DNA from: Candidatus Thorarchaeota archaeon
GTDB taxonomy: Archaea > Asgardarchaeota > Thorarchaeia > Thorarchaeales > Thorarchaeaceae
Assembly (NCBI GenBank): GCA_046482545.1
Contig: JAWOEX010000019.1
Location: 1 to 64,000 of the forward strand
Length of the DNA: 64,000 nt
Direction of reading: 5' to 3'
Shown here: in pieces, positions 14,803 to 49,601 of the stretch
Layout of the letters: each line of letters begins with the position of its first letter
How positions within the stretch are numbered: the stretch's first letter is position 1
Notes under the pieces: generated by a model
The model's input: the letters and a program-made list of their open reading frames with translations, nothing else
Told to the model about the DNA's origin: nothing
Databases searched by the model: none
Position numbers and translations under genes: made by a program

Positions 14803-14855
14803 ATTCGGGCATTTTTTCAAATCTGATTTCGTGTGATTTCTTGTCTAGCTCAGGA

Positions 14856-15128
14856 TATAACCTGTCTCTTACAGCTGTAGCAACTGCTTGAAACTTCTGT
14901 GTTCCGCCCTTCTTCTGCCAGCGTTACCGCCCCCAAGATACCCGTAGGCCCTTGAGTCAGCAGGGGCTTCGGCCGCGTGCTTCGTGACAGAACACTAGCC
15001 CCCTTCTCTAGTCCTGCTGGGACGAAGTTCCGTACTGAGCCTAACAAACTCCCCTCGTCTGTGGTCAGGAAAGGAGTTGCAGGAAATCTTACACTGCTCT
15101 ACCCTGGTTGTTTAGGATTCTGTAAGCT
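14856..15128 (-). mobile_element. Structured non-coding repeat element, copy A (short form, ~273 bp)
   Basis: Reverse complement aligns to both ends of copies B and C but lacks their 266-nt internal module; flanked by degenerate direct repeats at 14839-14855 and 15128-15143. Confidence 0.85.
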
Positions 15129-15293
15129 CTTGGTTATTCAGGAAACCTACATTTAATATTGTTAAGGTGATAGCTCTGTGTTAGAATACCCAAATGTGAA
15201 GTAGGTATCTTGGTCGTAGAAACCTAACTTCACAGCAAGGGACAGAATAGAAGTTAACAAAAGTATTAGATTGTTCGAAGATGGAGGTTTACT

Positions 15294-29212: not shown

Positions 29213-30340
29213 ATGTCAACAGGTCAGACCCTTCAAACCCAGATTCATGTTGACCCGGTCCAAGGTAAGAAAGATATCAGGCTTTTTACCCCGCCGGGCA
29301 TCCTTATCGAATCTCGTAGATATCCTACTGTTATAGCCAGCGTATTGGCATCATCATCCCCCTCCGAGCATATAGCTCTCTTTAATCATCCGGAGTCCTG
29401 GGAAGGACTCGACAAAACTACTATTCTCTCGATGAGGAGACGCTTGTATCGCTTGCAGATTCCCCTCAATGCCAGACGTATGGAACCATATGAAGCCGTG
29501 CACAAACTCCACCAGATAGCCCTGAGTGTCTCGCCTGTCGCAGTAGAGATAAGAAGTCAGGGCCTTCCTCATTCTAACTTAGTTACAAACCCGGGACAAC
29601 TACCATGTGGGACAGAAGTTCCTGCTGAATCACTTGAAATCATATCAAATACAGAAACCAGCAGAGTCGCAAAAACAATAACCGAGAAAGATATTCCCGC
29701 TGCACAGGGAGTTTGGCAACTACTTGAATACGACTATTCACTTGATCAAGCGGCACGTCTCATGGCGGTAGGTCTTCTCGGGAAGATTGGAAACCGAAGA
29801 ATCATCACAACCCGTGGGGCATACAAAGCGGCAATTGATGCTTTCATTGGCCGAACAATAATTGAGCTAGCTGAAAGACCGTTGGCAAATAGAAGAACAG
29901 TATTCTCTGCCAACTTGTTCAACGACGATTTCACTGTGTTCCTACAGCCAGGTGAGCCAGCAGTTGACTACGTGAGAATGGATATCAGGCCATCGGGCAC
30001 AAGTCAAGGATATTCATTTGAGCGAGAAAATGGTTCCGCTTCTGATGCCAAGTCCTCACTTTACGCTGACCATGCCCGATACTCAGCTTACAGGCATCTC
30101 TTAGCAAATCAGCTGAAAGCACATATTACGATTTTTCACTGCTCCAAAACACCTAGGAATAATCTTCTGGGTCCATGGATTGCTAGAGCTGGTGTGGAGA
30201 AAGCGCTTTCATCAGGACCCAGACGTGTAGGTACGGGTCAATCGGATTCAGATCTTCTCAACGGAATCCTTTCACCAAACTTGAAAAAATGGACTCACTC
30301 GCTTCCGTTCAAGAATAGGCAAGTTTTACAAAAATCCTAA
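29213..30340 (+). CDS. Divergent Nre-family (DUF650/651) DNA repair protein
   Basis: TPP.....YP, HPESW, QIALS..PV.VE, GLLG....R.IITTR follow Nre motif order; the stop codon is supplied by repeat copy B. Confidence 0.75.
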   Translation: MSTGQTLQTQIHVDPVQGKKDIRLFTPPGILIESRRYPTVIASVLASSSPSEHIALFNHPESWEGLDKTTILSMRRRLYRLQIPLNARRMEPYEAVHKLHQIALSVSPVAVEIRSQGLPHSNLVTNPGQLPCGTEVPAESLEIISNTETSRVAKTITEKDIPAAQGVWQLLEYDYSLDQAARLMAVGLLGKIGNRRIITTRGAYKAAIDAFIGRTIIELAERPLANRRTVFSANLFNDDFTVFLQPGEPAVDYVRMDIRPSGTSQGYSFERENGSASDAKSSLYADHARYSAYRHLLANQLKAHITIFHCSKTPRNNLLGPWIARAGVEKALSSGPRRVGTGQSDSDLLNGILSPNLKKWTHSLPFKNRQVLQKS

Positions 30341-30875
30341 AGAATCCGAGTGGAAGAGTGTAAACTATCTGTAAGAGTTCCTGTAAGTGCTACTGTGACC
30401 GAGGGCGATAGGACTTTATTAGGCCCAGTAAGAAATTTCGTTTCAGTAGGACTAGGCAAGTGGGCTAGTGGTGTAACACGACGCACGCGGCCGAAAGCTG
30501 CAAGGAAGACTCGTTCTTCTAAACAGAAGTCCCCACTCTCCAAACAAGGGGCCTCATCGAGCTCTGGAGAGTCCGCGGCTGTTCACCTTGTCCGTAATGG
30601 ACCTCCTCAGTTACGGCGACAAGGCTGAGGTGGGTGATCATGACCACGCCGTGGTAAGAACTGTGGAAGACCTCGCTGTCGCCGGGAGTGTGACCCGGAC
30701 AACGACAGGAGACAGAAGCCAGGACCGCAGGAGGAATTCCATTCCGATGAACGCGGACAAAGCCCCTGCTGACTCACGGAGCCACTGGGTAACCTTGGGG
30801 GCGGCGACGCTGGCAGGGGAAGGGTGGAACACAGAAGTTTCATGCAGTTCCTAGAACTGTAAGAAATGGGTTATA
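30324..30875 (+). mobile_element. Structured non-coding repeat element, copy B (long form, ~552 bp)
   Basis: Colinear with copy C over nearly its whole length; flanked by TCAAGAATAGGCAAG (30309-30323) and TCAAGAAAAGGAGG (30876-30889). Confidence 0.88.
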
Positions 30876-30908
30876 TCAAGAAAAGGAGGTAGTTGCCGAT
30901 TCCATGAG

Positions 30909-30935
30909 AGGGTGCTCATTGTGATTGAGCACCCT
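30909..30935. terminator. Hairpin between convergent genes
   Basis: AGGGTGCTCA-ttgtgat-TGAGCACCCT perfect 10-bp stem. Confidence 0.65.
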
Positions 30936-30983
30936 TTCTATGGCGCCTAAGTAGAAGAACAGCTATCAAATAGTGAAAAAGAA

Positions 30984-47658: not shown

Positions 47659-47729
47659 TATTAATCTCCCCTAACGGAGTTATTGTGTGAGTTTCGCAAG
47701 GCCGTTATTAACCTTTGCTGAGCACCCAA

Positions 47730-49534
47730 TCACGGCAATTCGGTCTTTTCTTCATAGATTTCAGGCAGGAAATAGGTTCCAATAATGGCAACTGCTATCA
47801 TTATGGCTATCACAACTGTAAGTCCCGGGAGATTATAGGGGGAAAGGCAAAACCCCCAACTGCTGGTCCAATTAGCATACCAGAGCCGAAGAAAATGCTA
47901 TGCACTCCCATGGTAGCACCCCGTGTTTCTTCCTCAGACACATCGGTAAGATAAGCCATGGATGCTGGTGGTATATACCAGCGAGATATCCAAGAGCTGG
48001 TAGAAGCGGCCATTTCGACCAAAGTGCGCTGATATTATCAGAATTTGCTAGCAGCAGATATGCAAGCACACCAAAACCCAAGAGACCGCTAATAATGAAT
48101 GGCCGACGTTTTTTCAAGCAATCGGATAGATACCCATGGCGATGATGCCCAGAAGCAAGGCTCTTCTAAGCATTCCGAACAGAATTATGAACTCGATGGC
48201 TGTGATGTAGAATTCGCTTTCGATAATACGCTGAGCATATCCAATGAGAAGACCGTACATTGAAATGATTGGCACGTAGAATAGTATCATCTTCTGAATT
48301 CTGCGGTCACTAGCTACTTCTTTTACAAGATCTGAAACACTCATTTGGACTTGAATATCCGTTCGGGTTTCCGAAAACCCGATATTTGCTATGAGTCCGC
48401 TAATAAGACAGGCTTAACCTGTAATTCCCAGAATGAGAACCGGCATGAAACCAAACTCCAGCAGAATGGCTCCCATTCCATAACCACTGATGAGCCCCAT
48501 CAGTGTTGAAAGATTGTAATAGCTCATGAGATTTGCCCCATTGTCCTTCGCTGACATGTCTCGTATCATAGATAGGGCTGTTGACCCCTCCCAAGCGGCT
48601 CCTAAACCAAAGATGACTGATGCAATCAAAAGAATTGGGACGTTCGGAGTAAAAGCAAAGCTAAGTGCAGCAAATCCCGTTATGAAGAGGCTTGTAATCA
48701 GAATGGGGTTTCTTCCGATTTTGTCACTATATGATCCGAAGAATGAGACTGACGTCAATTCTGCTACGGGATAGACTAGCATTACTGCTGCTATCTCCAG
48801 CACATGTGTTCCTCCACCCATGTATGAAGAACTCTGGAGTGCTCGGAATTTTACAAAATCCTAAATAAATCGGCACATAGAAGTGTAAGATTTCTGTAAG
48901 ATGTGACGTGAACCGATGGACCCGTCCAAAACGGTGTGTTTACCTTCTCTCTTCTCGAGCACTAGGGGGCTCTATTCCCTGCAGTACGAAACAACTCTAC
49001 AGTAGGACTAGGCAAGTGGGCTAGTGCTCTGTCACGAAGCACGCGGCCGAAACCCTAAGAGAAGACTCTGCTTCTCGACGGAAGTCCTCACTCTCCATAC
49101 AGGACCTTCATTCAAGGTCCGGAGAGTCCGCGGCTGTTCACCATGTCCAGACGGACCTCCTCAGCGGCGGCGACAAAGCTGAGTCGGGTGATCATGACCA
49201 CGCCGTGGCAAGCACTGTGGAAGACCTCGCTGTTGCCGGGAGTGATGACCCGGGATGACGACAGGAGAAGGAAGCCAGGACCGCGGGAGGAATCCCATTC
49301 CGGTGAACCCGGACGAAGCCCGTGCTGACTCAAGGGTCTACGGGTATCTTGGGGGCGGCGGCGCTGGCAGGGGAAGGGTGGAACACAGAAATTTCATGCA
49401 GTGTACGCAACTGTAAGAAACAGGTAATGTGAATTACTGCGATACTGATGTAGAAGGATGCCCGTACTATGATAGTGAATGTGTAAAGTGCAATGAGATT
49501 CAGGGTATGTTCTGAGGATTTAAGGCCTCTTCAT
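47730..49534 (-). pseudogene. MFS transporter pseudogene interrupted by repeat copy C, with several frameshifts
   Basis: TM1 (LNLIALYTFTIIVRASFYISIAVI) lies at 49430-49520; the rest (QSSSYM..GSYSDKIGR; DVSEEETRGATMG) lies at 47730-48840 in several frames. Confidence 0.85.
48849..49429 (+). mobile_element. Structured non-coding repeat element, copy C (long form, ~581 bp)
   Basis: Colinear with B; inserted inside the MFS gene; degenerate flanking repeats at 48835-48848 and 49430-49443. Confidence 0.9.
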
Positions 49535-49601
49535 TTAATCTCCTGTTTCTGCTCGTGTGAATCACTCTCTTTTTATAAGCTCTGGTTAGACTACGCTTAC
49601 C

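Follow-up and report, generated by a model that had tools for sequence, protein, structure and literature searches.

The three homologous segments dispersed over this stretch of a Candidatus Thorarchaeota genome are DNA MITEs, not SINE-like elements and most probably not introns, and they are very probably deletion derivatives of a Thorarchaeota aCas1-TnpB transposon, with aCas1 integrating them in trans and with the RNA that they carry representing a TnpB omega-RNA. The common ends, the duplicated target hexamer, an empty site, the gene content of the parent elements, the Cas1 fold and the covariation of the RNA were observed directly; the aCas1 fusion protein is the putative integrase and TnpB the putative nuclease. 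The MITE family is real and well defined, and belongs to a predicted Cas1-TnpB transposon.

Mini-elements of the window and their genomic family

The window, that is, the whole 64,000-nucleotide stretch that was analysed, is the start of contig C10 in an assembly of 3.05 Mb that is 98.9% complete. A sequence-only reading had described three homologous segments in it, present in both orientations and in one case inside a gene, as copies of a non-autonomous, MITE- or SINE-like mobile element with a folded RNA. The homology was borne out, copies B and C being 83% identical over 452 nt (E 8e-124) and copy A, which lacks ~270 nt of the middle and lies on the minus strand (B and C on the plus strand), matching both in two blocks of 75-84% identity; all of the shared motifs listed in that reading were found in the copies. 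The segments are real, but their limits had to be corrected to those given here, which are defined by the flanking hexamers.

14850-14855: right target hexamer of copy A, TCCTGA (element strand)
14856-15137, minus strand: copy A, an internally deleted mini-element of 282 bp with both ends kept, between flanking hexamers
15138-15143: left target hexamer of copy A, TCCTGA (element strand)
30309-30314: left target hexamer of copy B, TCAAGA
30315-30875, plus strand: copy B, a full-length mini-element of 561 bp between two TCAAGA hexamers
30315-30390, plus strand: left end of copy B, with ~10 variable bases, TTTTACA and three TGTAAR repeats, an end shared by the 8.2-kb parents
30415-30421, plus strand: TATA-like box TTTATTA of copy B (putative promoter), 34 nt 5′ of the conserved RNA start and after a purine-rich stretch
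30449-30875, plus strand: structured RNA of copy B, ~430 nt (predicted TnpB omega-RNA scaffold), the first ~260 nt being a decayed tnpB 3′ end
30838-30875, plus strand: right end of copy B, with a short hairpin, CTGTAAGAAA and terminal GGTTA(TA)
30876-30881: right target hexamer of copy B, TCAAGA, the duplication
47715-49545, minus strand: MFS transporter gene interrupted by copy C (antisense insertion), limits approximate
48833-48838: left target hexamer of copy C, TCTGGA, as in the empty site of two congeners
48839-49427, plus strand: copy C, a full-length mini-element of 589 bp between flanking hexamers
49005-49427, plus strand: structured RNA of copy C
49428-49433: decayed right hexamer of copy C, TGTGAA (2 mismatches), 3′ of which the host gene resumes

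Copy B, which is 94.7% identical to its nearest copy, is missing from the orthologous site in two congeners and has replaced the last codons of the ORF at 29213-30340. Its TGTAAR repeats start at 30359, 30370 and 30382, with a spacing of 11-12 bp, and are putative transposase binding sites; CTGTAAGAAA at its right end is the inverted counterpart of the left-end motif. A strong hairpin at 30905-30942, directly downstream of B and between convergent genes, is probably a terminator. Copy C, which has 62 nt of its left end in common, without a difference, with the 8.2-kb parent of contig C20, does lie inside a gene, as had been read from the sequence. Two congeners have an unbroken version of the MFS gene that it splits, in which one TCTGGA marks the insertion point; here the gene has since acquired stops and frameshifts. 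Copy A and a copy on contig C22 share one deletion junction, yet each has its own flanking hexamers, which implies that the full RNA is unnecessary in cis for movement.

Many more copies had been extrapolated from the three in the window, and an nhmmer profile built from 19 copies gave 104 matches at 98 loci of the host genome, amounting to 33 kb or ~1.1% of the assembly; 9 of 90 contig ends fall inside an element. The commonest intact form is the full mini-element of ~560 bp (33 copies), accompanied by shorter, internally deleted copies of 282-287 bp and ~150-180 bp that retain both ends. The assembled full minis are at most 95% identical to each other, which gives no sign of very recent activity. 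In an alignment of all ends, the left end has ~10 variable bases followed by TYTTACA and by as many as three TGTAAR repeats in phase, and the right end has the consensus TGTAAGAAAnnGGTTA. The minis have imperfect inverted ends (TCTTACA/TGTAAGA), and both ends adjoin a hexamer with the consensus TCNNGA. Of 32 paired ends, 19 have two identical flanking hexamers (shuffled pairs: 3.2, maximum 10 in 2000), and a longer duplication of 14-16 bp was not above shuffled pairs. The stagger of the cut would be 4-6 bp, because the outer T and A are attributable to target or element alike. Removing an element together with one hexamer in silico restored ORFs of 240-703 codons at several loci, and the element was absent from all five orthologous loci fetched. 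Minis of other genera likewise have hexamer duplications, their end motif being TGTCAGA, altered at both ends jointly as expected of a protein-binding site. These insertion scars show that the predicted transposon family really moves. The MITE-like character proposed in the sequence-only reading therefore stands, the elements being short, non-coding and multi-copy, with inverted ends, a target duplication and an autonomous partner with the same ends. Two unusual arrangements were also seen: at C22:202871-204529 a left end, ~1.1 kb with a 195-aa PAS-like ORF and a full mini lie within matching TCGAGA hexamers, an arrangement that resembles a composite element with a host gene as cargo, and at C20:181316-182445 two minis stand back to back with their left ends abutting, one inserted at the other's end.

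That the RNA might be a self-splicing, IStron-like intron, or that the element moves via RNA as a SINE does, is hardly credible. The RNA has a large multi-branch structure and an invariant GGACU/AGUCC helix that recalls P7 of group I introns, but in Rfam searches without the group I subclass models no intron matched in the window (E<=1, no match of any kind overlapping A, B or C) or in seven related loci (E<=5). Of the clean insertions in long ORFs, 3 have the sense and 4 the antisense orientation, a small sample, and the gene struck by copy C is decayed and hit antisense; splicing rescue of host genes was rejected on these same two observations, the lack of orientation bias and the decayed MFS gene. 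The SINE-like alternative is further contradicted by the lack of any reverse transcriptase (PF00078) match in this 98.9% complete genome, by the retention of both ends, by internally deleted copies with their own duplications, and by limits that are not defined by the RNA, since the elements include DNA ends and a putative promoter upstream of it.

Parent elements, the aCas1 fusion protein and TnpB

A search for longer copies with the same ends, which the sequence-only reading had proposed, found parents of 7.6-8.3 kb that encode TnpB and a Cas1-fold protein, two in this genome and two in relatives.

Contig C20, this genome: 8.2 kb, both ends, hexamer TCTGGA
Contig C28, this genome: 8.3 kb, both ends, hexamer TCAGGA
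A relative: 7,654 bp, hexamer TCTGGA, with only two ORFs of at least 180 aa (1709 and 544 aa)
A relative: 8,187 bp, hexamer TCCAGA

The order of the full form is left end, a large aCas1 fusion gene on the opposite strand, tnpB, the ~430-nt RNA and right end. The sole long ORFs of the 7,654-bp parent are the aCas1 fusion and tnpB, and in the C20 and C28 parents tnpB is head-to-head with a gene of 1410 or 1655 aa that has no Pfam match; the ORFs of two parents gave no match to Pfam polymerases. At all six further loci looked up the fusion gene adjoins tnpB, head-to-head in five, and copies that match from the RNA onward are preceded by an ORF of 545-560 aa matching TnpB profiles. The earlier statement that the segments contain no conserved ORF thus holds for the minis as genes, but the first ~260 bases of the RNA are the decayed last ~85 codons of tnpB. 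The sequence-only reading had recognised no known family, but the minis derive by deletion from aCas1-TnpB elements, a group whose presence in Asgard archaea had been predicted, and their RNA occupies the position of a TnpB omega-RNA.

Among 41 genomes searched, the elements are confined to one family, in which the RNA occurs in 18 and aCas1 in 17 of 24 genomes (both in 16, the kin not being independent); neither the RNA nor the aCas1 fusion was found in 16 genomes outside it, and most of the 39 homologues of the fusion protein bear the name of Ca. Thorarchaeota. Several other aCas1-TnpB loci showed no left end, which has probably decayed there or is of another type. Some worn-ended aCas1-TnpB loci sit against tRNA genes, recalling casposon targets (L003:10229-10303, L053:1068-1142 and L071); at some of them tRNA-Gly stands directly 3′ of the RNA, and L071 has a tRNA 3′ fragment past its right end, with tRNA-Ala on the far side of the left. 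Another set of aCas1 fusions, adjacent to TnpB-like genes of ~650-720 aa and without the 430-nt RNA (L067, L069, L078, L080, L082 and L083), may be the second published group. RadA/RecA-like genes directly adjoin the fusion gene at L063 and L067, and a winged-helix and nucleotidyltransferase gene pair, by eye an AbiE-like toxin-antitoxin, is located just upstream of a tnpB copy at C34:112000-114400.

The fusion protein is 1400-1900 aa long across the family, with an N-terminal Cas1 fold followed by a PD-(D/E)xK motif. Pfam detected no Cas1 match in the genome, the protein being too divergent, and it was a fold search that detected it. In a predicted model of the first 620 residues (pLDDT 72.6) the Cas1 fold occupies residues 9-242, and the top 11 matches in a VIA search of 48,161 chains were all Cas1 or casposase; the best Cas1 match (Z 13.2, rmsd 3.6, 178 residues aligned) and casposase 6opm (Z 10.6, rmsd 3.9, 192 aligned, helical catalytic domain) match the model over the helical catalytic part of Cas1 only. 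In Foldseek the first 14 rows were Cas1, though at E>=0.006. Residues E79, H174, D181 and D184 are conserved with Cas1-like spacing in at least 90% of 29 homologues, and E369, D382 and K408 of the PD-(D/E)xK motif are invariant. Residues 575-1410 yielded no assigned fold (pLDDT 60, best Z 5.4), a result that excludes nothing. Since Cas1 is matched in its helical part alone and ~830 C-terminal residues are without an assigned fold, we infer, rather than observe, which domain catalyses integration.

DDE elements typically combine a 6-bp duplication at a palindromic site with inverted ends that are imperfect, and a different enzyme, either a DDE transposase acting in trans or a domain hidden in the C-terminal 830 aa of the fusion, might move the element while the Cas1-fold domain does a different job. 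The genome does contain five DDE_Tnp_1 genes and one Y1 gene. We nevertheless regard this alternative as decidedly unlikely, because the DDE elements have different terminal repeats of their own, the genome has no match to IS630, resolvases or tyrosine integrases, the 7.65-kb parent holds the fusion and tnpB only, and the Cas1 active-site residues are conserved in the fusion. The sole Y1 gene is outside any pair of ends. Contigs C4, C9, C18 and C29 carry an unrelated ~1.1-kb DDE_Tnp_1 IS family, which has terminal repeats of the sequence GGCTCTGTAAAATAAT and duplications of its own.

The TnpB of the parents has the aspartates of RuvC-I and RuvC-III and a C4 zinc finger; a glycine takes the place of the RuvC-II glutamate, for which VPExWTS offers an alternative glutamate, so that retention of an active site (D, alternative E, D) is plausible from its residues. 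Such a rearranged TnpB site is described as probably active in the published account of Asgard loci (PMC10691335).

The 430-nt RNA

Conservation across genera begins at GGACTAGG, which encodes G-L-G immediately downstream of RuvC-III, and continues for ~430 nt to the right end, the RNA thus overlapping the 3′ end of tnpB. A consensus from 43 sequences (71% mean identity) has 93 pairs, 54 of them with compensatory changes. Over 90 pairs, 95.7% of alignment cells are paired, compared with 40-47% when partners are slid, a measure that is favoured by deriving the structure from the same alignment; double changes occur in 53 of the 90 pairs against 32 in shuffles. Helices beyond the tnpB stop also covary. 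Copy B folded alone was not better than shuffles on either strand (z -0.69), the structure therefore being visible in the alignment only. The position of the RNA across the tnpB 3′ end, together with this covariation, makes it most likely the scaffold of a TnpB guide (omega-RNA); at ~430 nt, it is longer than the TnpB omega-RNAs known to us. The sequence-only reading of a non-autonomous element with a folded RNA is in this respect upheld, as it is by the hexamer duplications and the empty site.

The motif GTTCACTCA is present downstream of tnpB in both intact parents of this genome and in 23 of 70 right ends of the genome, and is absent from A, B and C. The stretch before it is variable, 8-12 nt long and forms one arm of a terminal hairpin. 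GTTCACTCA may pair with the 5′ region of the RNA, a candidate long-range pairing of 5′ GUGG with 3′ UCAC being conserved in 36-39 of 39 sequences nearly without covariation. Many minis, including A, B and C, may consequently be poor guides. At L043 and L058, in two genomes, similar sequence follows the RNA end of TnpB loci directly, which suggests an old fixed insertion or a conserved guide.

The RNA of the minis could be a dead passenger, its structure having been shaped in tnpB-bearing parents and merely inherited by DNA MITEs of the aCas1-TnpB transposon. The covariation was counted on an alignment that mixes minis and parents, the deleted copies (282-287 bp and ~150-180 bp) retain both ends, and GTTCACTCA is missing from most right ends, all of which would fit this explanation. 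It is possible, though in our view unlikely, since in minis of several genera tnpB is cut away at nearly the same point, the conserved RNA start, the ~560-bp form is the commonest intact one, and a TATA-like box is found 28-35 nt upstream of the RNA start, in two different spacings. This box, a pattern chosen after inspection of the data, is present in 24 of 32 minis of this genome, 15 of 18 minis of relatives and 4 of 21 tnpB-bearing copies. We favour minis whose RNA would serve as a TnpB scaffold.

Proposed mechanism and comparison with known systems

In the mechanism that we propose, the aCas1 fusion, supplied in trans, would bind the TGTAAGA repeats and insert the DNA at TCNNGA, the staggered cut duplicating up to 6 bp, and its PD-(D/E)xK domain may free the ends by cutting at a set distance; this would account for a left end whose outer ~10 bases differ in sequence but not in length. 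Minis would have lost tnpB and gained or kept a TATA-like promoter, so that each could transcribe the scaffold with its own right flank as a guide and borrow TnpB in trans to cut element-free alleles; recombination would then copy the element into the cut allele, a route that has been shown for IS605 elements. When right flanks are taken as guides, 7 of 45 have a second 16-mer match at one mismatch in the genome, a count without a chance control. The duplication leaves the hexamer and flank at the filled site too, and self-avoidance by TnpB would therefore need an upstream motif. The only hint of such a means is position -3, which, by a post hoc comparison, is a purine in 20 of 23 targets and never T, whereas the filled junction has T.

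RNA and TnpB might instead help aCas1 to choose its targets, or aCas1 might write guides into the variable stretch that precedes GTTCACTCA. In favour are the size and high conservation of the RNA, the constant adjacency of the fusion gene and tnpB, and the internal spacer-like region suggested in the main text of PMC10691335. Targets, on the other hand, share the hexamer alone, of which the genome has 16,765 sites, and no match to an internal segment of the RNA was seen; TnpB retains a plausible active site; the variable stretch is only 8-12 nt and an arm of the terminal hairpin; and left-end bases resemble the right flank no more than they do in shuffled pairs (p 0.12). This alternative is highly improbable. 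Scarcely more probable, and still very unlikely, is a broader version in which the aCas1 fusion, TnpB and the 430-nt RNA form one machine, the RNA not only guiding the cutting of empty sites but also steering or licensing Cas1-type integration, and the promoter-bearing minis constituting a genome-wide guide library written by transposition; if true, it would be an RNA-guided Cas1 transposon that connects casposons functionally with type V CRISPR-Cas. On the reading that we prefer, aCas1 integrates and the RNA serves TnpB.

A literature search on Thorarchaeota Cas1 and TnpB found nothing beyond PMC10691335 and a review. The main text of the former (Altae-Tran et al. 2023) describes Asgard aCas1-TnpB loci with flanking repeats and the GTTCACTCA motif, predicts aCas1 to be the transposase, names the groups Cas1H-Asgard-1/-2 and credits aCas1 to Makarova et al. 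2020. The element analysed here belongs to this group by every feature tested, that is, the adjacency of a divergent Cas1 to tnpB, the Asgard host, flanking repeats and GTTCACTCA downstream of tnpB, and solo derivatives mobilised in trans are also common to both. Neither a target site, a duplication nor an empty site is given in that main text, nor an RNA structure or minis without proteins, and the internal spacer-like region that it proposes is here only 8-12 nt within a hairpin.

With casposons (A. boonei casposase, PMC5137440) the element shares a Cas1-fold protein with conserved E/H/D, inverted ends and a target duplication and, in some cases, a Cas4-like nuclease. Despite its Cas1 fold it is not a casposon: casposons encode PolB and make a 14-15-bp duplication at a tRNA-linked site (PMC5137440), whereas the Thorarchaeota element has no polymerase gene, duplicates at most 6 bp at dozens of TCNNGA sites, has a Cas1 domain that is part of a fusion protein of 1400-1900 aa, and carries TnpB and RNA. 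Its resemblance to IS200/IS605 elements lies in the tnpB 3′ end overlapping a structured RNA that extends as far as the right end, and in protein-free, non-autonomous copies that keep the RNA, as in the PATEs proposed to retain omega-RNAs for use in trans (Meers et al., 10.1101/2023.03.14.532601). IS605 itself differs in its Y1 transposase, single-strand route and scarless donor joint, compared with inverted ends, a duplication and a Cas1-type partner here. Archaeal DNA-transposon MITEs are short, non-coding and multi-copy, with inverted ends, a target duplication and an autonomous partner with the same ends; unlike the usual ones, the present minis carry a conserved folded RNA and a probable promoter, and their predicted partner transposase is of the Cas1 type. 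New here are the 6-bp multi-site duplication unlike that of casposons, the large RNA structure and the promoter-bearing minis.

Cas1 is thought to derive from a transposase, and the mobile Cas1 elements known so far, the casposons, are large, seldom found and tied to specific sites. The present family places a Cas1-fold protein inside an element that has spread to ~100 sites of one genome with a short palindromic duplication, breaking host genes and occupying ~1% of the genome. For an uncharacterised TnpB clade it provides a candidate scaffold of 430 nt backed by covariation, and defined ends, a target and a natural two-gene element make the published suggestion that Asgard aCas1 is a transposase directly testable. 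One transposon here pairs ancestors of the CRISPR integrase and of the Cas12 effector.
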